A stretch of DNA of 64,000 nucleotides from an archaeon (lineage in GTDB: Archaea > Thermoproteota > Nitrososphaeria > Nitrososphaerales > JACAEJ01): the NCBI GenBank assembly GCA_024256285.1, contig JACGUG010000002.1, positions 7,427 through 71,426 of the forward strand. The letters are read 5' to 3'. Position numbers and translations under genes: made by a program. Position 1 is the stretch's first letter. Each line of letters begins with the position of its first letter. This document shows, in pieces, positions 5,259 through 38,043 of the stretch. The notes below the pieces were generated by a model. That model ran no database searches. It was not told where the DNA came from and was given only the letters and a program-made list of their open reading frames with translations.

Positions 5259-6689
5259 TTACTTCTTCTCACGTTTTATGATTACCTTCTCAGCCACTAT
5301 CCTGGCATTCTTCAGGATTATTCTAAACCCGCCTTGAGTGGGTATTTCAATACTCATAGGGGCTGAAACAGGTGGTGCAACCTCAAGAGCCTCTTCCTTA
5401 ATCTCTTCTTCAGCAACTTCCTTCGTTTCCCATCTACTCACTACGGGATGGTTCTTGCTCTTTAGAAACTCTTTAAGCTCCTCTATTGTTTTACATTCAG
5501 CTTCCGTACATATCTTTTCACTTAGATTCTCTGGTATGGCATCCTTCAACCTTTCTTTGATCTGGGAAGGCATCCAGACGACTCTCTCCCATCCCCCATC
5601 GGCCTGAAGGAATTTTGGAGAGCGTAGGTACTCTACCGATACGCCATTAAAGCCTGGGTTTTGAGTTCCCCCGCCTGTATGGCCTGCCATAATAGAGAAA
5701 GGTATACCGTTAATAGAAGGCCCTCTAAAGTCACGATGTACTACCCCTACTCCATCGACCTCAGGTATGTAGAAAGCTATGGCTTCAAAGCAACCACAAG
5801 AAGTGTGAGGGTGGTCGAACATACTATATAGAGAGACAGATTCTATGCCCCCCAGTGACTTCTCTTGGGCAACTTTATTGACACCTTCATAGATACCCTT
5901 TACAGGGTCTAAGCATTCGCCTTTAGGTATAGGGAAGTTCGGACCTTTGGGATCCACGTCATATGCAGCTCTAGCATCGAACCAGCTTATGGACCCACAT
6001 GAAGCCATTCTGTTGGGGGTTATGACACATACATGGGTAGGCGCAAAGGACTGACACATCACGCATGCATAAAAATCATCGACATCTTCGTCCTTCAAGG
6101 TTCTGGTTCTTGTATCTCTTTTATCCCAAACATCCATGGCCATAGGAAAGAGCTCTTCGATCTTGGCTTTGTCTGTGTAGATCGTCACCTGAACCTTCTC
6201 TATTACAGGAAAGCTAGACTTGAAGAGCCATGCAAGAATCTTTCCTATATAGACTAAAGATTTCAAACCCTTCTGATAAGATTTCTTGGTTATCCTTATC
6301 CAGATATCGTATCTCTGATTGAGATGCATTACGCCTTCGATATAGTTCAAGAAATAATGGATCTTTCTCTCCAAGACTCCCTCTAGGTCTTTCTCCACCT
6401 TGGCGCCAGCGACCTCCAGCAATATACCTATCGGATAACTGCCCCCAGGTTCCAGATCTGGCAGGTTAGGTCCTATAACTGTAACCTTTCCATCCTCTAC
6501 TTGGTCTGCAGGTCTTGATAGGGCCAACTCCCACTTCTTCTCGACTTTCATACCACCGAACTCAAGGTACATGTCGGGTTTGCGAACTCTTTCCCCTTCA
6601 TAGATCTCTCCGACATCGACGGGAAACTCTGGTCTCACAAGTCCCATTGGCTCAGTTTTAATTTCATCTACCTTAGATGAACCGCTCAT
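5259..6689 (-). CDS. cdhC: CODH/ACS beta subunit (archaeal-type acetyl-CoA synthase, A-cluster)
   Basis: 476 aa, the archaeal short form. It carries the A-cluster region FYACVMCQSFAPTHVCVITPNRMASCGSISWFDARAA and ..HTSCGCFE. Confidence 0.9.
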   Translation of the reverse strand: MSGSSKVDEIKTEPMGLVRPEFPVDVGEIYEGERVRKPDMYLEFGGMKVEKKWELALSRPADQVEDGKVTVIGPNLPDLEPGGSYPIGILLEVAGAKVEKDLEGVLERKIHYFLNYIEGVMHLNQRYDIWIRITKKSYQKGLKSLVYIGKILAWLFKSSFPVIEKVQVTIYTDKAKIEELFPMAMDVWDKRDTRTRTLKDEDVDDFYACVMCQSFAPTHVCVITPNRMASCGSISWFDARAAYDVDPKGPNFPIPKGECLDPVKGIYEGVNKVAQEKSLGGIESVSLYSMFDHPHTSCGCFEAIAFYIPEVDGVGVVHRDFRGPSINGIPFSIMAGHTGGGTQNPGFNGVSVEYLRSPKFLQADGGWERVVWMPSQIKERLKDAIPENLSEKICTEAECKTIEELKEFLKSKNHPVVSRWETKEVAEEEIKEEALEVAPPVSAPMSIEIPTQGGFRIILKNARIVAEKVIIKREKK

Positions 6690-6725
6690 CTAGATTACCC
6701 ACTCTTTTGGAGTTATTTCATCACT

Positions 6726-6857
6726 TTAATAACGGTGTTTTTTAAGGTTTTTGCACTCATAAAGCATGGAATCGACACGATCTTCTACCAGTAGCTTGAG
6801 TCCTCTGATCTTGGCGAAGCTCGATCCCAGATCTTCGACCGGTGATTTGGCACTCAT
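6726..6857 (-). CDS. candidate 43-aa small protein upstream of cdhC
   Basis: Hand translation gives MSAKSPVEDLGSSFAKIRGLKLLVEDRVDSMLYECKNLKKHRY, ending in TAA. A GGAG sits 6 nt upstream of the ATG (6864-6867). It ends 36 nt before the cdhC start. It is below the ORF-track size cut-off. Confidence 0.25.
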   Translation of the reverse strand: MSAKSPVEDLGSSFAKIRGLKLLVEDRVDSMLYECKNLKKHRY

Positions 6858-6896
6858 TCTGATCTCCTCTATAATTGCATTAAATCTTAAAACCTG

Positions 6897-6907
6897 TTTA
6901 TTTTATT
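6897..6907 (-). promoter_or_regulatory. candidate TATA-like element for the cdh operon
   Basis: The minus strand reads AATAAAATAAA 40-50 nt upstream of the ATG at 6857. This is the only long intergenic region upstream of the operon. Confidence 0.25.
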
Positions 6908-7270
6908 GAGAACCTTAACACATTTTGGTAAAGTGGTAGTTTTTGTCCTTTCTATGGTTTTATCTACCATATTAATGATTGTAGATTCACAATAATAAGC
7001 TTTTCGCATAGTTGACATTTCATTAAAAAACTTCCTAGAGTAGTTAAGAGTCGATGTAACCACATTCCATTAAATGGTGACTTAAGCAAGAAGGTATGGG
7101 ATATCGATCTGTCAAATTTTTACAGAGCATTTAACCTAGCATAGGAGCACTGTAGGATAGATGGTATGGACTGGATGCCATCAAAAGAGCTTTCAAGGGG
7201 ATCGTTCTTATCGAAAAATAGCATATTAACAAAAATTATTAAAGGCTGGATGAAAAACTGTTAAACTTGA

Positions 7271-8185
7271 ATGAGAGATCTCATAATAATAGGTTCAGGG
7301 CCTGCGGGCTTGACGGCTGCCATTTATGCTGGTAGGGTTAACCTAAAACCTCTTGTTATTGCAGGACGTCAACCTGGCGGGCAGTTGATGCTTACTGGTG
7401 AAGTTGAGAACTATCCTGGCTTTCCTGATGGAGTTCAAGGTCCTGAGTTGATAGATAGGATGAGGAAGCAGGCTGAGCGCTTTGGTGCAGAATTTATAGA
7501 CGATGACGTTACATCCGTGAATTTCTCTTCCCGTCCATTTGAGGTAAGAGTTGGCGATGAAGTGTATAAGGCGAAGTCTGTAATAATCGCAACAGGGGCA
7601 TCAGCGAAGTGGCTAGGCTTGGATTCTGAGAAGAGACTTAAGGGGAGGGGGGTATCCACATGCTCTGTCTGTGATGGTTTCTTCTTCAAGGACAAGGATG
7701 TAGTAGTTATAGGTGGTGGAGATCCTGCTATGTATGAAGCCTTAGACCTCACAAAGTTTGCAAGAAAAGTCGAAGTCATCCATTGGGGAGATAAACTTAG
7801 GGCCAACAAGATACTGCAAGAAAGAGCCCTTAAGAGTGAGAAGATACACTTCAGGTGGAACAGCGTTGTAGAGGAGATCTTGGGCGACGATACAGTAGAG
7901 GGTGTGCTCACCAGAGATGTCAAGACTGGGGAGAGGCATAAACTAGAATGCCAAGGAGTCTTTATAGCCATCGGATACAAACCTAACACAGAGGTCTTCA
8001 AAGGTTGGATAGAGCTGGATGAGAGGGGGTATATAATCAGGAAGAATCGTACTGAAACCAATATCAGAGGCGTATTCGTGGCAGGAGACGTCTGTGACCG
8101 TCGATACAGGCAAGCTATCATAGCAGCAGCGATGGGTTGTCAAGCAGCCATAGATGCAGGGAAGTACCTAGAATCTTTAGAGTAA
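7271..8185 (+). CDS. trxB: thioredoxin-disulfide reductase
   Basis: 304 aa with GSGPAGLTAAIYA (FAD site), the redox CSVCDG motif and GGGDPAMYEA (NAD(P)H site). Confidence 0.9.
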   Translation: MRDLIIIGSGPAGLTAAIYAGRVNLKPLVIAGRQPGGQLMLTGEVENYPGFPDGVQGPELIDRMRKQAERFGAEFIDDDVTSVNFSSRPFEVRVGDEVYKAKSVIIATGASAKWLGLDSEKRLKGRGVSTCSVCDGFFFKDKDVVVIGGGDPAMYEALDLTKFARKVEVIHWGDKLRANKILQERALKSEKIHFRWNSVVEEILGDDTVEGVLTRDVKTGERHKLECQGVFIAIGYKPNTEVFKGWIELDERGYIIRKNRTETNIRGVFVAGDVCDRRYRQAIIAAAMGCQAAIDAGKYLESLE

Positions 8186-12839: not shown

Positions 12840-12908
12840 AGGAAGGCTATCAAAATGTTGTTTTAAATATGTTTTTTAGAAACAAAAAGGTGAAGAGGCC
12901 TAACTTAC

Positions 12909-13121
12909 CTATATATGGTGTAGGAGATTCTTACGTTTCTCCTTTGCCCATTCAGTATAAAACCCGATGGCAGCGATAACCATTAAGATAATCGTACTGT
13001 AGTTCAATTCCCACCATGTCATCGGGCAACCTACTACATATCTGACAGCACCTATCACCTGAAGTATAGAGGCGATAGTAAGAATAACTGCCGCAGTCGA
13101 CATGCCCGCTGACTTCTTCAT
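12909..13121 (-). CDS. small membrane protein (2 predicted TM helices)
   Basis: 70 aa with hydrophobic segments AAVILTIASILQVIGAV and TIILMVIAAIGFY. It is convergent with the previous ORF. Confidence 0.5.
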   Translation of the reverse strand: MKKSAGMSTAAVILTIASILQVIGAVRYVVGCPMTWWELNYSTIILMVIAAIGFYTEWAKEKRKNLLHHI

Positions 13122-13167: not shown

Positions 13168-13215
13168 AAAAGGTGTAGGCTTAACCATCAACCCGCCCCA
13201 ATAGATTGGGAGACT
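13168..13215 (-). repeat. dispersed ~50-nt element, copy 1 (candidate sRNA/terminator module)
   Basis: The minus strand reads AGTCTCCCAATCTATTGGGGCGGGTTGATGGTTAAGCCTACACCTTTT. It shares the GTCTCCCA, CTATTG and TACACC-Tn blocks with the copies at 23013, 26891 and 37965. Confidence 0.6.
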
Positions 13216-13281
13216 AGACATTTGATTTTATAGGGATAGCAAAAGGTTATACTTTTTAAGTTTGAAGTAGAATCTATCCTT

Positions 13282-16560: not shown

Positions 16561-16586
16561 AGAAACAAGTAGAAGAATCGGATAAG

Positions 16587-16675
16587 CGGGCCCGGTGGGA
16601 TTTGAACCCACGACCTCTGGCTCCGGAGGCTTACGCAACTTTACAGCGCCCTGATCCATGCTAGGCTACGGACCC
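16587..16675 (-). tRNA. tRNA-Arg (anticodon CCG) with a 13-nt intron at non-canonical position 29/30
   Basis: The hand-folded cloverleaf has acceptor stem GGGTCCG/CGGGCCC, D arm GCCT..GGGC, T arm GTGGG-TTCAAAT-CCCAC and variable loop AGGTC. The anticodon arm CTGGC-CTCCGGA-GCCAG forms only after removing TAAAGTTGCGTAA (plus-strand 16631-16643). No CCA is encoded. Confidence 0.85.
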
Positions 16676-19373: not shown

Positions 19374-20612
19374 ATGATGTTCAGCTTAAGGTGCATAAGT
19401 TGTGGGTCTGAAGAGAGCATCGACGAGATAGTCTACCGTTGCAGAAGATGCAACGACCTACTCGAAGTCCAATTGGACTTAGAGAGGGCAAAGGAGAGGG
19501 TTGATAAGAGAGAATGGAGCTCAAAGCCCCTATCTGTCTGGAAGTATATTGGGCTCATCCCTGTCTTCGATAAGAGCAAGATCGTGACTATCGGTGAGGG
19601 AGGGACTGGTCTGCACCGTTGTGACAATCTTGCAGAAGAGCTTGGAGTCAAGAATCTGTATGTGAAGAATGAAGGGGAGAACCCCACAGGGTCCTTTAAA
19701 GACAGAGGCATGACCATAGGTGTGACGAAAGCTAGGGAGTTGAATGTAAGCGAGGTTGCATGTGCATCTACTGGGAATACTGCTGCATCGTTGGCTGCCT
19801 ATTCTGCCAAAGCTCGTCTGAGATGTATGATCTTGATCCCACATGGTGCTATCGCTCTGGGCAAACTCGCTCAAGCCATGATCTACGGTGCCAAGGTAAT
19901 AGAGATAAAGGGAAACTTCGACGACGCACTCTCTATGGTTTTAGATGCTAGCAAGAGCCTTGGTCTATACCTCCTCAACTCTATCAATCCCTTTAGGATA
20001 GAGGGGCAGAAGACGGCAGCCTTCGAGATATGTGACCAACTTGGTTGGCATGCGCCCGATAGGCTTGTGATTCCCATAGGAAACGCAGGAAACATAACAG
20101 CATACTGGAAGGGTTTTAAAGAATTTTATGAATTAGGCTTGATCAAAGGCTTACCTATGATGACAGGAGTTCAAGCATCTGGCTCAAGTCCTATAATTCG
20201 AGCAATAAAGGAAGGGAAGAAGACGATTCAGCCTGTAAAAGACCCAAGGACGATAGCCAGTGCTATAAGGATCGGGAGACCAGTGAACTGGAAGAGGGCG
20301 ATGATAGCCATAAGAGAATCTGATGGCAAGGGTGAAACTGTGACGGATGAAGAAATAATCTCTGCTCAAAGGCTTCTGGCAAGAAAGGAAGGGCTTTTCG
20401 TAGAGCCTGCGAGTGCATCGAGCATAGCCGGTCTTAAGAAGTTGATTGAATTAGGAGAGATAGATAGAGAAGAAGAGATAGTCTGCGTGGCTACAGGTCA
20501 TGGGTTGAAGGATCCTGACAGTGCCATCGAATATTGTGAAGAACCGATTTTGATAGAGCCTGACCTCAAGATTTTAAGAGAAGTGATCGAGGGAGTAGTC
20601 ATCAAAGTTTAA
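19374..20612 (+). CDS. thrC: threonine synthase
   Basis: 412 aa with an N-terminal Zn ribbon (CISCGS..CRRCN) and the PLP-lysine motif GSFKDRG. Confidence 0.92.
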   Translation: MMFSLRCISCGSEESIDEIVYRCRRCNDLLEVQLDLERAKERVDKREWSSKPLSVWKYIGLIPVFDKSKIVTIGEGGTGLHRCDNLAEELGVKNLYVKNEGENPTGSFKDRGMTIGVTKARELNVSEVACASTGNTAASLAAYSAKARLRCMILIPHGAIALGKLAQAMIYGAKVIEIKGNFDDALSMVLDASKSLGLYLLNSINPFRIEGQKTAAFEICDQLGWHAPDRLVIPIGNAGNITAYWKGFKEFYELGLIKGLPMMTGVQASGSSPIIRAIKEGKKTIQPVKDPRTIASAIRIGRPVNWKRAMIAIRESDGKGETVTDEEIISAQRLLARKEGLFVEPASASSIAGLKKLIELGEIDREEEIVCVATGHGLKDPDSAIEYCEEPILIEPDLKILREVIEGVVIKV

Positions 20613-20648
20613 CTTAACTTAAGTATGCGATTTTGCTAGTTAAGTTAA
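20609..20648. terminator. 11-bp inverted repeat between convergent thrC and the HEPN gene
   Basis: TTAACTTAACT (20609-20619) pairs with AGTTAAGTTAA (20638-20648) around an 18-nt loop. It overlaps the thrC stop codon. Confidence 0.35.
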
Positions 20649-21467
20649 TTAGTATCTACTATCTTTTTTATCGACGTTTCTTATCAATTCTTCTTTAAGA
20701 TAGAGTTTGGAAGAAAGTGCTTTATCGATTGCTTTTTGAATGTATATACTCGGAATTTTTACGTCGTTAAAAGTAATTTTCTTCTTTCCTCCATGAACAA
20801 TAGCACTTCTTAAATCATAGAAATCACCAATTCTTTTTGAAATTTCAAATCTCTCTGTTTCATCATCTGCTATGAAGCTAGAGAGTCTACATTTGAGATT
20901 TTCCTTGATTTTTTCTCTATTGCTGAAAAGAACTTCAGCAGTAATCGCTAGGTTATTTAAAACTTCATCCAAATGACCTCTGTCAAATGTCTGTAGTGCA
21001 AAAAAATAATAACGGAGAGCTTGGCCAAGATATCCGCCCATTATTCTTTGAAAATCTTTTTCAAATTTTAAGAAATACTCTTTGGTTAAAAGAATTGATT
21101 TGCTAAGCTCAGAATTCATATCTTCCTCCATATTAGCTTTCTTAAATTTTGGAAATGAAACTTTCTTTTTTCCGAGGTCATTTAACGTAGATATCGGGGT
21201 TGCAGCACCTACTTTATGAGTTACAACTGTATTATATAACAAAGCACGTAGAAGAAGAAAGAAATCAATATATGTAATGGCTTCCGTAAAATGGTTTGAT
21301 TCATCTTCTGAACCGACGTATGCAAAAGCAAAAAATTGCGAATCGCTAGAAGGGTATTTTTCCCAAGCATTTTCTAGAATTAATCTTTCAGATACTTGTA
21401 GTCTTCCTATGGTAAAGGGCAATATTTCACTTTTTCCACTTAAGAGAAATTCTATCTGATGTATCAC
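20649..21467 (-). CDS. HEPN-motif protein (predicted RNase-type toxin/defence component)
   Basis: 272 aa. The C-terminal helical region ends in FYDLRSAIVHGG, an Rx4H motif. A spot GC count is about 30 percent. Confidence 0.55.
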   Translation of the reverse strand: MIHQIEFLLSGKSEILPFTIGRLQVSERLILENAWEKYPSSDSQFFAFAYVGSEDESNHFTEAITYIDFFLLLRALLYNTVVTHKVGAATPISTLNDLGKKKVSFPKFKKANMEEDMNSELSKSILLTKEYFLKFEKDFQRIMGGYLGQALRYYFFALQTFDRGHLDEVLNNLAITAEVLFSNREKIKENLKCRLSSFIADDETERFEISKRIGDFYDLRSAIVHGGKKKITFNDVKIPSIYIQKAIDKALSSKLYLKEELIRNVDKKDSRY

Positions 21468-21851
21468 GATTCATAAGTAGTATCTGCATTCATTTGAGTT
21501 TTTCTTAAGGTCTATTTCAATTAATTTGAAGATGGATGTGAGCTTGTAATCCGTAGAACACAACTGAGAGCTAAACATTTATTCTATAGCCCTAGCTTAA
21601 CACAAAAGCAGAACCCTAAATTTAAGGAAATAGGTTAACTAGCCTTTTTCGTTTAAAACATGGTTTTTTTGCATTCGTTATAATATTATATAAATATAGC
21701 CAAAATTTTCGTGGCTTTCGAACAGGGACAAAGGGTTTAAGGGTTGTTTTGTACTTCCTAAATAAGACGGGTTTTCTATTAACTCCTTATATAGGGTTAA
21801 GAGAAAGACTGAACTATTTACTTAAGATTATTCCAATTACAAAAGAGTACA

Positions 21852-21885
21852 AAGTGTAAAGCCTAAAGCATACGAAAGGAGACTC
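21852..21885 (-). repeat. degenerate copy of the dispersed element
   Basis: The plus strand reads AAAGTGTAAAGCCT..GGAGACT, compared with the AAGGTGTAGAGGCCT..GGGAGACT consensus. The CAATAG block is missing. It lies about 65 nt downstream of the second HEPN gene on the same strand. Confidence 0.3.
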
Positions 21886-21953
21886 AGTTAAAGTGAAGGA
21901 TGATTCTGAGATTTTGGCAGTTCAAGTTAAGAAAAGGATCCTATAAATTATTT

Positions 21954-22748
21954 TTAGAAATTCGAAGAATACCACATGGTGAGAGTGGTGGCACCATAAA
22001 GTGCATTTACTGCTTCTCTATCGGATACTGGAAATCTACTTCGGTGAACAGCTGATATTCGAGATTTGTTAACAGTCTCGATTGCTCCCGAAATATCTGA
22101 AGGAAAATCTATTTTTTCTTTAACCTTATAATACAATTCTCCTAAAGGAACATCTGGTGCGTATTCTTTGAATTGCTCTTCATAAAGGTCTGCTAGAATA
22201 CTCTCAACAGTAATTGCAGATAAGACTATGGATGTTCTCCATTCTTTCGACGAATGATACTTAACTGCACCTTTAAGAAAATCTCTTAGGTCTTTTGGTA
22301 CCGCTGTAGCTTTTTCGCTATGTTCTAACCATAGACGGACGGCCAAGGGGTAGGGTCGAAATGTGTAGCGGGATGAAAATGTTTGTCTATGACGGAGTTG
22401 ATTAACACTTTCTCCTATATATGGAATACATTTTATAAAGTTTGTAAAAATTGACATTCCTTGTTCTTTTATAGTAGTGATATTAATAAATAACTCATTA
22501 GACTCACCGCTCATACTCGCTATAAAAACCACATCGGGAATATTAGGGAAAATCCGTGAATCTAACATTTTACCTCCATTCTCAGCTTTCATATGATCTA
22601 TAACAAAATTCCATACAGTATTTAATAATTTTAGATCTCCCATTAAAGCTGATCGGTTGACTGTGAATCGTCGATCAATGTCAAGGTATTTCAGAATCTC
22701 GTTAGGGCATTTTTCAGACAAAAATAATACTTTAACTACTTCATCCAA
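21954..22748 (-). CDS. HEPN-motif protein with an unknown N-terminal domain
   Basis: 264 aa. The C-terminus reads ..WRTSIVLSAITVESILADLYEE...NKSRISAVHRSRFPVSDREAVNALYGATTLTMWY, an Rx4H motif within a helical bundle pattern. A spot GC count is about 20 percent. Confidence 0.55.
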   Translation of the reverse strand: MDEVVKVLFLSEKCPNEILKYLDIDRRFTVNRSALMGDLKLLNTVWNFVIDHMKAENGGKMLDSRIFPNIPDVVFIASMSGESNELFINITTIKEQGMSIFTNFIKCIPYIGESVNQLRHRQTFSSRYTFRPYPLAVRLWLEHSEKATAVPKDLRDFLKGAVKYHSSKEWRTSIVLSAITVESILADLYEEQFKEYAPDVPLGELYYKVKEKIDFPSDISGAIETVNKSRISAVHRSRFPVSDREAVNALYGATTLTMWYSSNF

Positions 22749-22764
22749 ATTTTTTGTTATTTCA

Positions 22765-22956
22765 TCATGTTTTAGAGTTTCTTTTTTCGATTTTTTTAGC
22801 TAATTCAACTAACTCAGCCGATTGTTTCTCATCTGCTTTAATATTTTCAGCCATATCTTTAAAGAATTGTGGAAGCCTAGAGAAATCGACCTTAATCAAG
22901 CTATTATATACACCACTTTTTAGAGGATTTGAGAGATACTTTATAATATAATCCAA
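22765..22956 (-). CDS. 63-aa hypothetical protein, upstream partner of the HEPN gene
   Basis: The ORF ends 16 nt before the start of 21954..22748 on the same strand. It has a charged helical C-terminus (ADEKQSAELVELAKKIEKRNSKT). Confidence 0.4.
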   Translation of the reverse strand: MDYIIKYLSNPLKSGVYNSLIKVDFSRLPQFFKDMAENIKADEKQSAELVELAKKIEKRNSKT

Positions 22957-23012
22957 ACTATGTATAAAATCATATATCGGCTAATAATCTTTACTAATCT
23001 TCGATCTCCACC

Positions 23013-23065
23013 AAAAAATAAGGTGTAGAGGCCTTCTAACCCAGCCTCAATAGGTCTGGGAGACT
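23013..23065 (-). repeat. dispersed ~50-nt element, copy 2
   Basis: The minus strand reads AGTCTCCCAGACCTATTGAGGCTGGGTTAGAAGGCCTCTACACCTTATTTTTT. It starts 37 nt downstream of the hisS stop on the same strand. Confidence 0.6.
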
Positions 23066-23101
23066 TTACTTAACTCATCAATTTCGAAGGGTTAAATTGT
23101 C

Positions 23102-24391
23102 TTAACTTACTTCAGCCTTAAGAAAAGGTACTAATTCATCGATCCCTATCTGCCTTTCAGTACCATCTCCCATATCTTTAAGAACTATCTTCTTTTGTGA
23201 ATACTCCCTTGGTGCGATTATCAAGACGTATCTTGCCTTTAAAGAAGATGCGACCTCCATCTGCTTCTTCAAACTTCTACCAGATAGATCGGCCTCCACT
23301 CTCATCCCACTCCTCCTCAACTCTGATGCCAACTGAGTGGCTTGTCTGATGAAATCTTTGTTTGCGTATGCAACGTAGATTATCCCTTGCTCTTCTTCGC
23401 TCTTGGCTAGACCTCTTTTTGATAATGCAAGCACTATCCTCTCCACACCTCCTGCAACGCCTGTTGCCAATAGATCTGGTCTGCCAAAGACTACAGGCAG
23501 ACTGTCGAACCTTCCACCCCCTGCCAAAGCTCCTATATCTACATGCTCTCCATCAAATACCTCAAAGACTACACCATCATAGTAATCCAATCCCCTGACT
23601 ATCCCCATGCTCAAGAGGACGTCCCCTATGCTTCTTGCATCGAGGGAATCTGTTATGCTCTTCAGATCCTTGAGATTTTGGAGGCCTTTCTCTTCCAACC
23701 TATCTATGACTTCATAAGGCTTGCCTCTTATTTTGCCGAATTCGATTACCCTTCTCATCACGTCTTCATCTATGCCTTTATCGGCATACTCTTCTATTAT
23801 CTGTGAGGTACTCTTCTTCTTTATCTTGTCCAGAGCCCTTAAAGCCTCTAAGATAAGATCTTCATCATCTGTCTTCATCTCCCTCCTTACATATTCTTCC
23901 ACCACTTTTCTATCCCCGATCTCTATAAAGCAGTTCTTCAGCCCTAGCTTGTCGAATATGATATGAGTTAGCTCCACTATCTCTGCATCTGCCTCTACGC
24001 TCTTTGAGCCGAATATCTCTGCATCCCACTGATAAAACCATCTATACCTTCCATACTGAGGTTCGTCGTACCTCCACATACTAGAGAAGGAGCACAATTT
24101 TATGGGAAGTTGAAGATCACGGCGGGAAGCAACGAACCTTGTCATCCCTACTGTTAGATCGAACCTCAGCCCCAGATCTCTGCCCCCCTTATCTTTAAAA
24201 CAGTATATCTCCTCTGATATTGCAGACCCGCTCTTCGCCTCTAATGTGCTCAAGAGTTCTATTGGCGACGGCTCCATGAGCTTAAAACCGAAGAGCTTCG
24301 ATACCTCTAAGAAGGTGCTTCTTATCTTCTCCACTACCTCGAAATCCTCTGGCTCTAGGTCACGCATACCCCGAGGCAACCGAAACTTCAT
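23102..24391 (-). CDS. hisS: histidine--tRNA ligase
   Basis: 429 aa with LPRGMRDLEP, the class II motifs and AGGGRFD. Confidence 0.92.
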   Translation of the reverse strand: MKFRLPRGMRDLEPEDFEVVEKIRSTFLEVSKLFGFKLMEPSPIELLSTLEAKSGSAISEEIYCFKDKGGRDLGLRFDLTVGMTRFVASRRDLQLPIKLCSFSSMWRYDEPQYGRYRWFYQWDAEIFGSKSVEADAEIVELTHIIFDKLGLKNCFIEIGDRKVVEEYVRREMKTDDEDLILEALRALDKIKKKSTSQIIEEYADKGIDEDVMRRVIEFGKIRGKPYEVIDRLEEKGLQNLKDLKSITDSLDARSIGDVLLSMGIVRGLDYYDGVVFEVFDGEHVDIGALAGGGRFDSLPVVFGRPDLLATGVAGGVERIVLALSKRGLAKSEEEQGIIYVAYANKDFIRQATQLASELRRSGMRVEADLSGRSLKKQMEVASSLKARYVLIIAPREYSQKKIVLKDMGDGTERQIGIDELVPFLKAEVS

Positions 24392-25555: not shown

Positions 25556-26010
25556 ATGAATTCAAAGATCGTAGAAGATCCATCTCTAAGATATAGGAGG
25601 TATGTGTTTAAAGACAGGATCCATGCAGGCGAACTTCTGGCGGAAAAGCTTAGAAGGTATAAGACCGAAGATGCTTTTGTCCTGGCTAACCCTCTGGCGG
25701 GGTTCCAGTGGGATTCATCGTCGCCAGAGAACTCGACAAACCCTTTGACCTTATAATTGTCAGAAAGATCCCTATCCCCATGGAGCCTGAAGCAGGTTTT
25801 GGAGCGATAACCTTCGATGGCATAAAAGCCCTTAATGAGCCTCTGTTGAGACAGCTTGGTCTGACAAAGGAAGAGATCGATGAATGTTCTTCAAAGGTCA
25901 TCGAAGAGATAAGAAGGAGAATGAAGAAGTTCAGGCGAGAGAAGTCCTTTCCAGATCTAAAGAAAAGACTGTCATACTTGTAGATGATGGTCTTGCCTCT
26001 GGCTATACCT
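25556..26010 (+). pseudogene. phosphoribosyltransferase pseudogene (two frameshifts, 3' truncation)
   Basis: Three ORF fragments lie in three different frames. Together they align colinearly with the intact paralog at 26101..26772: RYVFKDRIHAGELLAEKL / GVPVGFIVARELDKPFDLIIVRKIPIP..EAGFGAITFDG / KTVILVDDGLASGYT. Similarity stops after DDGLASGYT. Confidence 0.75.
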
Positions 26011-26100
26011 TCAAAATTGAACGTCTAGTCTTCCACCCTACTGGAGCAGGGGATAAGCTCCTACACCCTATTTTATATCGAGAAATCCTCCCCAAAAGCG

Positions 26101-26772
26101 TTATAAGTTTAGATAATCCTTGACTTCCTCTTCGGATAGGTCGTACCATGATCGATATGCATCAGCTACAGCATAGGGGAATCCTTCCCTTACGTTTAAG
26201 CAGACGATCATGTCAGAGTAAGGTTCCACCAATTTGATGGCGTCTGCCGAAGCTGTTGGAGTGGCAATTATTATCTTCTTTGGCCCCTTTTTCTTCACCG
26301 ATATGGCCGTAGCCAGCATGCTATAGCCGGATGCCAAACCATCATCGATCAGCAAAACATCCTTGTTTCTAAGGTCTGGGAAGGGTTTCTCCTCTCTAAA
26401 AACTATCAGTCTCTTCTTGATCTCCTTCTTCTCCTCATCGACACACCTTTTTACCACTTCTTCGGATAAACCGAGATTCACAAGCAGGGGTTCATTAAAT
26501 ATTACAGAACCATCCCAAGTGACAGCACCAAATCCAGCTTCAGGGTTCCATGGTATGTGGATCTTCCTTACAACGATTACATCGAAGGGTAGGTTCAGCT
26601 CTTTAGAAACCACGTGGCCTACCGGTACCCCACCGGCTGGTATCGCCAGAACGATGGCATCCTTTCCTACTAGACCTTTAAGCTTCTTGGCTATCAGATG
26701 ACCTGCGACCATTCTATCCTCGAATACGTACTTTCTGTTTCTGAAAGCCGGTTCATCGATGAGTTTTGACAT
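26101..26772 (-). CDS. phosphoribosyltransferase-family protein
   Basis: 223 aa with the PRPP-binding loop VLLIDDGLASGYS. It is intact. Confidence 0.8.
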   Translation of the reverse strand: MSKLIDEPAFRNRKYVFEDRMVAGHLIAKKLKGLVGKDAIVLAIPAGGVPVGHVVSKELNLPFDVIVVRKIHIPWNPEAGFGAVTWDGSVIFNEPLLVNLGLSEEVVKRCVDEEKKEIKKRLIVFREEKPFPDLRNKDVLLIDDGLASGYSMLATAISVKKKGPKKIIIATPTASADAIKLVEPYSDMIVCLNVREGFPYAVADAYRSWYDLSEEEVKDYLNL

Positions 26773-26890
26773 ATTTCACAGAATTTTAGGTATAACCTCT
26801 TTTTAAGTATCTTCACATAATGGTAAAAGGAAAGTGAAGCCTTAAGCTCTCCTATGCATATAATTGTTAACCATCAACAATTGAACGTTT

Positions 26891-26946
26891 AGTCTCCCAG
26901 ACTATTGAGGCCAGGTCTAAGCTAAGGTCTCTACACCTTTTTATTT
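26891..26946 (+). repeat. dispersed ~50-nt element, copy 3 (plus-strand orientation)
   Basis: It reads AGTCTCCCAGACTATTGAGGCCAGGTCTAAGCTAAGGTCTCTACACCTTTTTATTT. ATATAA at 26858-26863 ends 28 nt upstream of the conserved 5' block. Confidence 0.6.
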
Positions 26947-27011
26947 AAAGAAGGTTCTCATACTACATGAACCAATATTCTCGTTAGAATCTAATCATTT
27001 AGAATAGGGGA

Positions 27012-27047: not shown

Positions 27048-27716
27048 TTAGACCACTATGTCACCCGTTGTGCCATAGTCAAAGTTGTTCCATGTTTGAC
27101 TCTTGTAATGGTATGTCCAACCCCAGCTGATTAATGTCAAAGGACTTGCTCCAGTGAAGTATGTGGAAAGGAAATTGAATAGTGTAGTTGGACCCGTCTG
27201 GCCTGCTCCATAAGTCCCGAGAAGAATGTCTGCTTTGGTCCCACCGTAATCGTATGTGCCAATATTTCCGAATGCTGATGTGTATCCTGTAGCTGTGAAC
27301 GTTGCTATATAGCCACCCTCAAATGTTCCCTGTGCGTCTTTAGATTGAGCGACCCCAGCTCCAGGGCTTAATGCTCCAGCAAACGTGTACCATTTTCCAG
27401 TATATCGGGCGACCACATAGAAGGTTCCGTCGGGCGCCTGCCAGACTTGAACGTGCTTGTTGTAATTATCCAAGGCCCAATAACCCACATTTCCTGAGTC
27501 TTCGTCGTTTGTGACTTTATGATTAATGTTTAAGATCAGTACGGATCCACTTGGAACATCACCAGCATTTACGAAACTGCCAAAGGTTGGATGAGTAGAT
27601 TTAGCCATCACAGGTACTGCGAATACAACCATTGACATTAGAAACATTGCAGCAGCGAAGATCGACAGTACCTTTCTATTCACTATTGCTTCCATTTTTC
27701 TTCCGGAAATATACAT
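27048..27716 (-). CDS. secreted/cell-surface hypothetical protein (beta-rich, G/T/Y-rich)
   Basis: 222 aa with an N-terminal signal-like segment (VLSIFAAAMFLMSMVVFAVPVMA). I recognise no catalytic motif. Confidence 0.6.
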   Translation of the reverse strand: MYISGRKMEAIVNRKVLSIFAAAMFLMSMVVFAVPVMAKSTHPTFGSFVNAGDVPSGSVLILNINHKVTNDEDSGNVGYWALDNYNKHVQVWQAPDGTFYVVARYTGKWYTFAGALSPGAGVAQSKDAQGTFEGGYIATFTATGYTSAFGNIGTYDYGGTKADILLGTYGAGQTGPTTLFNFLSTYFTGASPLTLISWGWTYHYKSQTWNNFDYGTTGDIVV

Positions 27717-28111
27717 TATTAGTTCAATTTTTTAAACTTTTTATATAAATATTATAAATAAAAACAATATTATCAAGCATTCTTGAAAAATAATCCAAAA
27801 TTTTAAAATATTTAACAATATTATATTTTATTGTAACGAAAACGTAGTAATAATAAATCGATCGATAAGTAAGATCGTAGTCGCTGTTCCTACGGCATCC
27901 ATAAGTGCTATACGGCTGATAATGCCTCATGTAGATGAAATCGTCTGTGAATATCAGAGACGATCTCTTCTTTGCAGTTGCCGATGCCTATGAGAGGTGG
28001 TACGATCTAAGTGATATGAGGTATAGAGATACTTGGGGGGATGAGAGACGAGTCTCAAGAGTGAAAGTTTAGATCCTTCATCTCCTTAGATGGCAGGGAT
28101 CTTAAATCGAC

Positions 28112-37661: not shown

Positions 37662-37964
37662 CGAATTGGTTTAGTTTGGTTAACTATTAGAAAACCCCGG
37701 TATTGCTCTTCTTGTCTGCTTTAGGATAAATCTCTGACTTTATCGAAATCGAGCTCATCCATCGATCTTACAAGACTAAGCTCCTCTTGCAACTACTTCT
37801 TGTAAGAGCTTAATCCCCTCTTCACTTAAGAAACTTTTGATAAGGTGATTGATTAGGGTTTTATCTGCTTTGTGCAATAGTTGCTATAGACGGAGAAACT
37901 AACGGACGGATGAAGAACATTTTCCCATCAGCTACCCTACCTAAAATCTTGACTGCTCATTCAT

Positions 37965-38012
37965 AAAAAGGGTGTAGAAGCTTATCCCCTTGCTCCAATA
38001 GGGTGGGAGACG
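37965..38012 (-). repeat. dispersed ~50-nt element, copy 4
   Basis: The minus strand reads CGTCTCCCACCCTATTGGAGCAAGGGGATAAGCTTCTACACCCTTTTT. It lies about 150 nt downstream of the M50 protease gene on the same strand. Confidence 0.6.
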
Positions 38013-38043
38013 AAGAGTTTACTTACCGTAAGGACTTCATTGT

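Follow-up and report, generated by a model that had tools for sequence, protein, structure and literature searches.

The AT-rich block between thrC and hisS of this archaeon, an organism from mangrove sediment with a Ca. Methylarchaeales-like lineage, is DNA of foreign origin that was put between the convergent 3' ends of the two genes in one lineage. It probably carries two independent single-gene HEPN effectors, A and B, on the acquired DNA, with B in decay. The block was analysed within a stretch of 64,000 nucleotides, referred to here as the window, and the features used in the argument are as follows.

19374 to 20612, plus strand: thrC (threonine synthase), left flank, native composition, GC 0.465
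20609 to 20648, no strand: hairpin located where the stops of thrC and gene A converge
20613 to 20621, no strand: left copy of the junction repeat CTTAACTTA, in a (TTAAC)n run right after the thrC stop
20619 to 23101, no strand: inserted AT-rich DNA, about 2.48 kb, borders fixed to the precision of the junction repeat (5-9 nt)
20649 to 21467, minus strand: gene A, intact, 272 aa, with a predicted beta-rich N-terminal domain (residues ~1-110) and a predicted helical, HEPN-like C-terminal domain
21468 to 21953, no strand: non-coding spacer of 486 bp, from the B stop to the A start
21954 to 22748, minus strand: downstream fragment of gene B, 264-aa ORF, with the rest of the predicted N-terminal alpha/beta domain and the predicted C-terminal HEPN domain
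22765 to 22956, minus strand: upstream fragment of gene B, the "63-aa ORF", N-terminus of the B family protein
22782 to 22797, minus strand: B frameshift site, A7 (22797-22791) and A6 (22787-22782) on the coding strand
23013 to 23086, plus strand: one copy of a dispersed element (about 65 nt, intergenic), which belongs to the insertion and lies upstream of B, shortly beyond the stop of hisS
23101 to 23109, no strand: right copy of the junction repeat, overlapping the hisS stop and last codons
23102 to 24391, minus strand: hisS (histidyl-tRNA synthetase), right flank, native composition, GC 0.450

The thrC gene is 94% identical to that of Ca. Methylarchaceae HK01M, the closest genome, and hisS is 92% identical to the copy of the closest relative (locus L010). 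In L010, the gap between thrC and hisS is 6 nt and the block is absent; it is likewise absent from four Nitrososphaerales relatives (L012-L015), and the thrC-hisS spacing across these five loci is 6-50 nt. Since thrC and hisS are directly adjacent in the closest genome and in the four relatives, the block is a lineage-specific insertion. We found the block at the same site in contigs from four runs (X1-X4) of two studies, and at a further locus (L011), a different inserted gene occupies the thrC-hisS intergenic site. The composition of the island was also strongly deviant, with a GC of 0.329 compared with 0.434 in the remaining window, which makes it the GC minimum among all 2.5-kb segments (median 0.43, 5th percentile 0.390). 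Genes A and B are the two lowest-GC ORFs of the window, and their GC3 values of 0.234 and 0.260, respectively, lie far under the host mean of 0.448 (sd 0.060), which was taken over 47 ORFs of at least 200 aa. A preliminary description of this DNA had reported an AT-rich block at 20613-23101 between two housekeeping genes, had put thrC at about 47% GC (measured, 0.465) and had proposed horizontal acquisition, a proposal that the empty site in the relatives and the deviant composition bear out. The locus offers a clean comparison of a filled with an empty site, and thereby an example of gene gain, in an archaeal order that is related to methanogens and little known.

The preliminary description had counted three ORFs, and their coordinates, their location on the minus strand and the 16-nt gap between the 63-aa and 264-aa ORFs proved accurate. 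As judged from alignment, the 63-aa ORF is the front end of a broken gene B, and there are two genes, not three. In particular, this ORF aligns with residues 1 to ~60 of the homologs P0025-P0088 (e.g., LDYIIKYLSNPLKSGVYNS compared with LDYVIKYLSNPLKTGVYNS in P0027). Full-length B homologs are 320-345 aa long, and the window's B would reach ~327 aa if read through. The frame of the 264-aa ORF is open up to 22799, the two B frames overlap at the A7/A6 runs, and the frameshift site has a single base more than the homologs that stay in one frame. Because B keeps every family-invariant residue, the break is recent. An assembly error was considered as the cause of the frameshift and rejected, since the region is identical and gap-free in the contigs of the four runs from the two studies. 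For annotation, the gene count is corrected to two instead of three, and one of the two is a recent pseudogene. Separately, poor sequence quality was rejected as an explanation for the neighbouring split phosphoribosyltransferase ORFs, as the same decayed duplicate was found in L010.

On the basis of its predicted structure, protein B is HEPN-like. The model of the full-length homolog P0027 (pLDDT 93.8) contains helices at residues 213-227 and 231-254, an insert at 263-271, and then helices at 278-296 and 304-324, with R291-x4-H296 predicted at the end of helix 278-296. In the HEPN layout (PMC3710099), Rx4H is placed where the penultimate core helix finishes, and an insert separates helices 2 and 3. 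The models of both A and B follow this layout: the motif closes the penultimate core helix and opens the loop that leads to the final helix, and the insert that separates helices 2 and 3 is helical. Foldseek matched B with a probability of 1.00 to 1o3u, 1ufb and 1wol and of 0.99 to 2hsb and 3o10, and the TM values with solved HEPN structures were 0.59-0.70. The R and H of the B motif (NKSRISAVHRS), as well as an upstream E, did not vary across 60 sequences, among them the window's protein. Helix 2 of HEPN domains further carries an acidic residue, typically as Ex3[KR], and the R is followed by a polar residue (PMC3710099); in B, E243 lies in helix 2 with no Ex3[KR], and Ile follows the catalytic R where a polar N/D/H is usual. 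PF05168 was matched by 36 of the 60 B members at E<=1 (best E 9.3e-6; P0027, 13.5 bits), B remaining under the gathering threshold of 22 bits, and the window's 264-aa ORF gave no PF05168 match at E<=1; the B relative P0137 has a precomputed PF05168 call. PADLOC-DB 2.0 yielded only weak QatB matches (E 0.0004-0.02), which fell on the first HEPN helices in 6-8 of the 60 members. The B family comprises more than 140 clusters at 90% identity, and its N-terminal domain has an invariant SSRYTFRPYPLA motif. Identification of this domain as a fused MNT nucleotidyltransferase was rejected as unsupported, since it contains no G[SG]...DxD (only G15...D-F-S) and Foldseek returned no nucleotidyltransferase.

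The structural model of protein A also indicates a HEPN-like protein, with support that is weaker than for B yet consistent. The preliminary description had placed an Rx4H motif at the end of the 272-aa protein; the motif is present (FYDLRSAIVHGG), at residues 216-227 and not at the very end. The A model (pLDDT 92.4) shows helices at residues 146-162 and 166-181, an insert at 187-199, and then helices at 203-224 and 233-252, with R220-x4-H225 predicted at the end of helix 203-224. In the A family, E178 is invariant and R220-x4-H225 is kept in at least 90% of 22 sequences, two members being devoid of R and/or H. The residue following R is S/G/C, and E178 of helix 2 does not stand in an Ex3[KR] context. 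The top-probability Foldseek matches of A were HEPN structures (4nqf, 0.85; 2hsb, 0.84), with non-significant E-values of 0.57-0.73, and a Foldseek search against viral structures returned nothing for A. Over the motif helix, 12 of the 22 A members gave a sub-threshold HEPN_RiboL-PSP match, and distant relatives matched RiboL-PSP (3.8e-5) and Apea HEPN. The PF18735 (HEPN_RiboL-PSP) gathering score of 28.4 bits was missed both by the A family (best, 18.7) and by the distant relatives (best, 24.1), and the window's own protein A had no PF18735 match. The A family consists of ~35 close clusters at 50% identity (E<=1e-30), and its HEPN part links to 1280 representatives. No RNA-seq runs were listed for gene A, and the locus was present in no RNA run.

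The HEPN nature that had been claimed for both proteins agrees with the folds, with where the motif lies and with the conserved R and H, and it is in line with the HEPN matches in the structure searches (probability 1.00 for B, 0.84-0.85 for A) and the retention of the motif residues in homologs. The claim that the two proteins are unrelated agrees with the hhalign comparison of A with B, which gave a probability of 1%. Scans of the window's own proteins against Pfam, NCBIfam, PADLOC and PHROGs revealed nothing significant, and profile searches against PDB sequences gave no HEPN match with A2 and A3 and only coiled-coil noise with B. The two uncharacterised HEPN families have no Pfam model, and their N-terminal domains have no solved relative.

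Each gene encodes a single chain composed of an N-terminal domain of an unfamiliar kind and a predicted C-terminal HEPN domain. A and B may dimerise via the HEPN domain, which would generate a metal-independent Rx4H RNase site, and the N-terminal domain may serve as a trigger sensor or as a gate on the nuclease, in the manner of HEPN effectors of abortive infection or defence that consist of one protein. Under such single-chain gating, a separate antitoxin would not be needed. A defence or toxin role of A and B is plausible. HEPN domains with Rx4H are typically conflict RNases, and HEPN toxins often have partners (PMC3710099). At the island, we found no antitoxin, MNT, integrase or PADLOC system; in particular, no ORF of the island is a minimal nucleotidyltransferase gene adjacent to B, and no neighbour was conserved across 67 B contexts or 5 A contexts. 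A and B did not co-occur at any other locus examined. These results do not support the earlier view of A and B as a co-functioning module.

A and B might also be ordinary cellular RNA-processing or nucleotide-binding proteins that are passive on a foreign fragment and have no conflict function, an explanation that we regard as unlikely. The Bathyarchaeia homologs, which are single genes amid housekeeping genes with GC near that of the host, favour it, as does the absence of homologs from PADLOC models and viral contigs, where B had no match and A had one distant match in the HEPN part only. However, the genes are distributed patchily and no two contexts are alike, B is often pseudogenised and is sporadically located near Cas1, integrase and methyltransferase-like genes, and the typical function of Rx4H HEPN domains in conflict (PMC3710099) also argues against a cellular role. 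The near-native GC and housekeeping context of the Bathyarchaeia homologs, which fit a non-conflict cellular role as well, count against our preferred explanation of two independent effectors. If A and B are not defence effectors, the locus is an ordinary small genomic island.

The borders and the spacer bear on a further alternative, namely that a larger element (provirus, plasmid or transposon) lost its mobility genes and decayed to the present island, with the spacer and border repeats as relics. The sharp borders with a direct repeat of 5-9 nt, the long non-coding spacer, one cargo gene that is already broken and the other inserted gene at the same intergenic site in L011 are all consistent with such an origin. 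However, no integrase, transposase or recombinase gene was found among the ORFs or in any frame of the spacer, a comparison of both island ends revealed no terminal inverted repeats, and no viral contig matched the island beyond the one distant match in the HEPN part of A. Additionally, the border repeat is part of a run of (TTAAY)n pentamers, a run that the relative's empty site has too (L010, TAA-CTTAAT-TTAACTTAC), and the 9-mer CTTAACTTA occurs six times in the window versus 0.8 expected. A target duplication, as proposed, may have occurred: the 9-mer is present at 20613 and 23101 as described, and the junction repeat amounts to 5-9 nt inside a short tandem repeat. Taken together, we consider a remnant of a larger element distinctly unlikely.

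The remaining non-coding features were examined as well. The spacer at 21468-21953 has the length of 486 bp given for it, and it contains no notable ORF, gene remnant or similarity to any of the comparison loci. A degenerate copy of the dispersed element had been reported within it, and nhmmer detected none there even at E<=10. In contrast, the reported right-border copy is real (E 1e-14), one of six found by nhmmer in the window, and the copy at another site has an ortholog in L010. The hairpin next to thrC consists of an outer 11-bp stem (TTAACTTAACT / AGTTAAGTTAA) and an inner 4-bp helix, with an RNA fold of -12.6 kcal/mol, and its 42 nt recur with 2-3 mismatches in other contigs with unrelated flanks. 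Rfam gave no match on the island and a single tRNA in the whole window.

We also consider distinctly unlikely a more specific proposal, in which the A and B families would be undescribed single-chain archaeal immune effectors, a new N-terminal sensor would gate the HEPN RNase, and the unusually frequent B frameshifts, several of which fall in an A-rich linker, would reflect on/off switching or repeated selection against strong self-toxicity. The candidate sensors would be the beta-rich domain of A and the alpha/beta domain of B with its SSRYTFRPYPLA motif. If A and B prove to be defence effectors, they would extend the short list of archaeal immune systems that consist of one gene.

It is very doubtful that the B frameshift itself is a switch, whereby transcriptional slippage or +1 ribosomal frameshifting at A7/A6 would give a low, regulated amount of full-length HEPN protein, or the population would toggle between on and off states. 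The shift falls exactly in homopolymer runs, B is otherwise undecayed with its invariant residues all kept, and 9 of ~66 B loci are frame-split, i.e., eight others independent of the window's, and three or four of these are likewise broken within the Lys/Glu-rich linker (residues 40-150). However, the other frameshifts are scattered from residue ~41 to 292, which fits random inactivation, a conserved slippery motif was not seen across the B family, and no alternative allele was present in the contigs of the four runs, from which rare variants would, however, be lost. A toxin-antitoxin or multi-component defence module, in which the 63-aa protein would be the antitoxin of the 264-aa HEPN toxin with A possibly as a third component, has the small same-strand ORF 16 nt upstream, the frequent partnering of HEPN toxins (PMC3710099) and a weak AIPR_N match of the 63-aa ORF (E 0.031) in its favour, but it is extremely improbable because the putative antitoxin is collinear with the N-terminus of single-chain homologs and continues into B after a +1 shift of frame at the A-run, and the co-occurrence of A and B, an MNT and a conserved neighbour are all lacking at the other loci examined; the small ORF is a frameshifted fragment of B and not the neutralising partner suggested earlier.

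Two independent single-gene effectors, our preferred explanation, can be compared with three groups of known systems. The HepT/HEPN-T toxins (HEPN-MNT; PF05168; 1o3u TM0613, 2hsb AF_0298, 1wol ST0689, 1ufb/1wwp, SO_3166) have the fold predicted for the C-terminal domain of B, and, as in B, R-x4-H ends helix 3 and an acidic residue is conserved in helix 2, in B outside an Ex3[KR] context. The differences are that B was not accompanied by an adjacent MNT at 67 loci, that ~210 aa at its N-terminus form a conserved domain, fused to the HEPN domain, for which no relative is known, and that Ile follows the R, with the window's protein under the Pfam cut-off.

The RiboL-PSP-HEPN (PF18735) and Apea-like HEPN (PF18739) families gave repeated sub-threshold matches over the motif helix of A, and the C-terminal domain of A shares an E...ALF / FYxxRSxIVHG pattern with its 1280 distant relatives. 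In contrast, the family-specific, beta-rich N-terminal domain of A is not described in those families.

Finally, the single-protein abortive-infection effectors AbiD/AbiF, AbiJ, AbiU2 and AbiV and the sensor-HEPN effectors Csm6/Csx1 and RnlA follow the same logic, a variable N-terminal domain combined with a C-terminal Rx4-6H HEPN domain, and they resemble A and B in being stand-alone, patchily distributed and located in variable regions (PMC3710099). A and B differ from these Abi and sensor-HEPN effectors in having no sequence or profile match to them and no CARF or other known N-terminal domain, and in their hosts, which are archaeal (Bathyarchaeia and Methylarchaeales).

The AT-rich island between thrC and hisS (20613-23101) was shown to be acquired DNA of 2.5 kb that carries two unrelated stand-alone HEPN-domain genes, A and B, one intact and one recently frameshifted, without an antitoxin-like partner. 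All ORFs of the island lie on the minus strand, and argS and the gene for the RFC small subunit adjoin the flanks.

Features of the island and its flanks
19374-20612, plus strand, thrC (flank)
20649-21467, minus strand, gene A, 272 aa, GTG start
21468-21953, ORF-free spacer of 486 bp
21954-22748, minus strand, 264-aa ORF (downstream fragment of gene B), TTG start
22765-22956, minus strand, 63-aa ORF (upstream fragment of gene B), 16 nt upstream of the 264-aa ORF
23102-24391, minus strand, hisS (flank)

The preliminary description had reported an AT-rich island of foreign DNA, and its composition bore this out. The GC content was 0.329 compared with 0.434 in the rest of the window, the lowest value of any 2.5-kb window (median 0.434, 5th percentile 0.390). 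Of the 47 ORFs with 200 aa or more, A and B had the lowest GC, and their GC3 values (0.234 and 0.260) were far under the mean of 0.448 (sd 0.060). Bathyarchaeia homologs of A and B had a GC content near that of their host, and in the window it was 10 points lower; judged by composition, this gap would fit a recent arrival out of a lower-GC donor. A second very AT-rich stretch (27550-27999, GC 0.28-0.29) looks intergenic; within it, 27747-27773 and 27798-27824 are short direct repeats rich in A/T.

Relatives were sought with the thrC protein across 185,579 species genomes. The closest was locus L010 of 'Candidatus Methylarchaceae archaeon HK01M', a MAG from mangrove sediment placed in the order Ca. 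Methylarchaeales, class Nitrososphaeria (PMC9478090), with identities of 94% for thrC, 92% for hisS and 93% for RFC. Only 6 nt separate the thrC and hisS stop codons in L010, which reads gttTAA-CTTAAT-TTAACTTAC, whereas the window junctions read gttTAA-CTTAAC-[TTAAGTATG...ATTGTC]-TTAACTTAC. The distance was 15-50 nt in four Nitrososphaerales relatives (L012-L015). Since this synteny comparison, which the preliminary description had suggested, places thrC next to hisS in all of these relatives, we conclude that approximately 2.48 kb (20619-23101) was inserted. Contigs from four public runs of two studies spanned both junctions with the island present, and no empty-site joint was seen in them. 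In another lineage, the Nitrososphaerales MAG locus L011, a 527-aa ORF (6478-8061, minus strand) sits between thrC and hisS and is thus a different extra gene at the same intergenic site.

The HEPN-like nature of both proteins was supported by models, Foldseek and a conserved R-x4-H motif, although the evidence for A is weaker because its E-values were not significant. The AlphaFold model of P0027, the closest full-length homolog of B, had a pLDDT of 93.8 and a pTM of 0.89, and its C-terminal domain matched solved HEPN domains.

Foldseek matches of the P0027 model
1o3u, probability 1.00, TM-score (target) 0.69
1wol, probability 1.00, TM-score (target) 0.70
1ufb, probability 1.00, TM-score (target) 0.59
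2hsb, probability 0.99, TM-score (target) 0.69, rmsd 2.7 Å
3o10 (sacsin HEPN), probability 0.99, TM-score (target) 0.63-0.65

PF05168 matched 36 of the 60 B-family members (best E 9.3e-6), and the family has an invariant R-x4-H and an invariant upstream Glu; it deviates in the Ile directly after the motif R. For the gene A model (pLDDT 92.4, pTM 0.90), the best-probability matches were HEPN proteins (2hsb, 0.84; 4nqf, 0.85; also 5yep_C and 2q00), none significant, and 12 of 22 family members gave a sub-threshold HEPN_RiboL-PSP match over the motif helix. When 1.84 billion representatives were searched with a profile, 1280 relatives of A emerged; in the distant ones the similarity is confined to the C-terminal domain (E..ALF / FYxxRSxIVHG), and some of these match HEPN_RiboL-PSP (3.8e-5) or HEPN_Apea. 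E178 is invariant in the A family, and R220 and H225 are kept in at least 90% of members. The motif has H replaced by N in P0002, the closest homolog of A, and R by K and H by R in P0020, while the relatives P0178, P0187 and P0189 carry an extra C-terminal domain of ~150 aa beyond the A-type core.

In both models, Rx4H closes core helix 3, where the loop to helix 4 begins, with a conserved Glu in helix 2 and a helical insert between helices 2 and 3, which is the HEPN layout of PMC3710099; the Ex3[KR] form is absent. The two proteins are unrelated in sequence (hhalign probability 1%), as had been proposed. The N-terminal domain of A (residues 1 to ~110) is beta-rich and matched nothing in Pfam, PDB sequences, or PDB or BFVD by Foldseek; that of B (residues 1 to ~210) is alpha/beta with an invariant SSRYTFRPYPLA stretch and matched nothing in Pfam, PDB sequences, or PDB by Foldseek. 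Neither protein matched a PADLOC system, and neither family was found in viral contigs, save one distant match to the HEPN part only. A cellular role of A and B outside conflict is unlikely, though still a reading of some weight.

The island might also be the remnant of a larger mobile element, which we consider rather improbable; it contains neither a recombinase or transposase nor terminal inverted repeats. The 9-mer CTTAACTTA, previously put forward as weak evidence for a target duplication, does occur at both borders, but it is overabundant in the window (6 copies against 0.8 expected, the other four in unrelated contexts), and the junction falls inside a (TTAAY)n pentamer run. As the empty site already contains this run, the real extent of the duplication may lie anywhere between CTTAA and the whole 9-mer. 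A hairpin at the left border (20609-20648, -12.6 kcal/mol as folded RNA) is built with host pentamers, and the 42-nt palindromic stretch where thrC meets gene A (20608-20649) is seen again, with 2-3 mismatches and unrelated flanks, in other contigs of the public runs X1, X2 and X4; a repeated hairpin element and a terminator are both possible readings. The sole tRNA gene in the window (16586-16675, minus strand, 90 nt), called tRNA-Phe with anticodon aaa by ARAGORN and confirmed as a tRNA by Rfam, is probably either interrupted by an intron or miscalled.

A dispersed intergenic element of ~65 nt has six copies in the window by nhmmer, one of them within the inserted DNA near hisS, at its right end.

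Copies of the dispersed element
12879-12933, plus strand
13168-13228, plus strand
23013-23086, plus strand
26012-26077, minus strand
26877-26947, minus strand
37961-38024, plus strand
4622-4675 in L010, minus strand

Its consensus is AAAGGTGTAGAGGCCT...GCTCCAATAGGGTGGGAGACT..ACGTTCAATTT, preceded by an A/T-rich stretch, with no Rfam match and no constant orientation relative to the genes on either side. The orthologous copy of another site in L010 marks the element as native to the host lineage; it is a candidate small RNA, regulatory site or MITE. A degenerate copy claimed in spacer 21468-21953 is unsupported, since nhmmer found none there.

The preliminary description counted three genes, with the 63-aa ORF as a partner; there are only two, and this ORF is the N-terminus of frameshifted B. 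Single-chain B homologs are 320-345 aa long, and the ORF is collinear with their initial ~60 residues (LDYIIKYLSNPLKSGVYNS in the window, LDYVIKYLSNPLKTGVYNS in P0027). Both frames are open across A7 and A6 runs (22797-22782), and the +1 offset equals one extra base relative to the homologs. An assembly slip was ruled out: contigs of X1-X4 are identical and gap-free at the site, so the population does carry the frameshift. That the A-run serves as a slippage switch has a slim chance at best. The break is recent, since the window's B retains all columns invariant among 60 family members. The B-family match was also split over two frames in eight other independent loci of 67 examined (L116, L117/L118, L119, L121, L127, L133, L144 and L154), with breaks at differing residues (~41 to 292), which suggests from sequence comparison that the family is inactivated recurrently; autotoxicity or cost might explain such frequent pseudogenisation. 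Elsewhere in the window, three overlapping ORF fragments in differing frames (25556-26123, plus strand) form a decayed, inverted duplicate of the adjoining phosphoribosyltransferase gene (26101-26772, minus strand). The same arrangement in L010 (81% nucleotide identity) rules out sequencing error and marks an old pseudogene.

A co-evolved module was not borne out either: A and B never occurred together in the contexts examined, and no common neighbour was found among five contexts of A-family and 67 of B-family genes, where Cas1 (5 loci), tyrosine integrases (4) and a methyltransferase-like gene (3) were sporadic neighbours of B. A true toxin-antitoxin module is thus contradicted and highly improbable. 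As a whole, the earlier observation is largely real and its general direction (foreign DNA, HEPN) right, while it erred on the number of genes and on the 'partner'.

A and B add new, uncharacterised members to a well-known superfamily, and their setting is that of a typical small island. By analogy with known Rx4-6H HEPN domains (PMC3710099), each protein would be a dimeric, metal-independent RNase, and the N-terminal domain may gate this activity, much as happens in single-protein effectors of abortive infection or defence.
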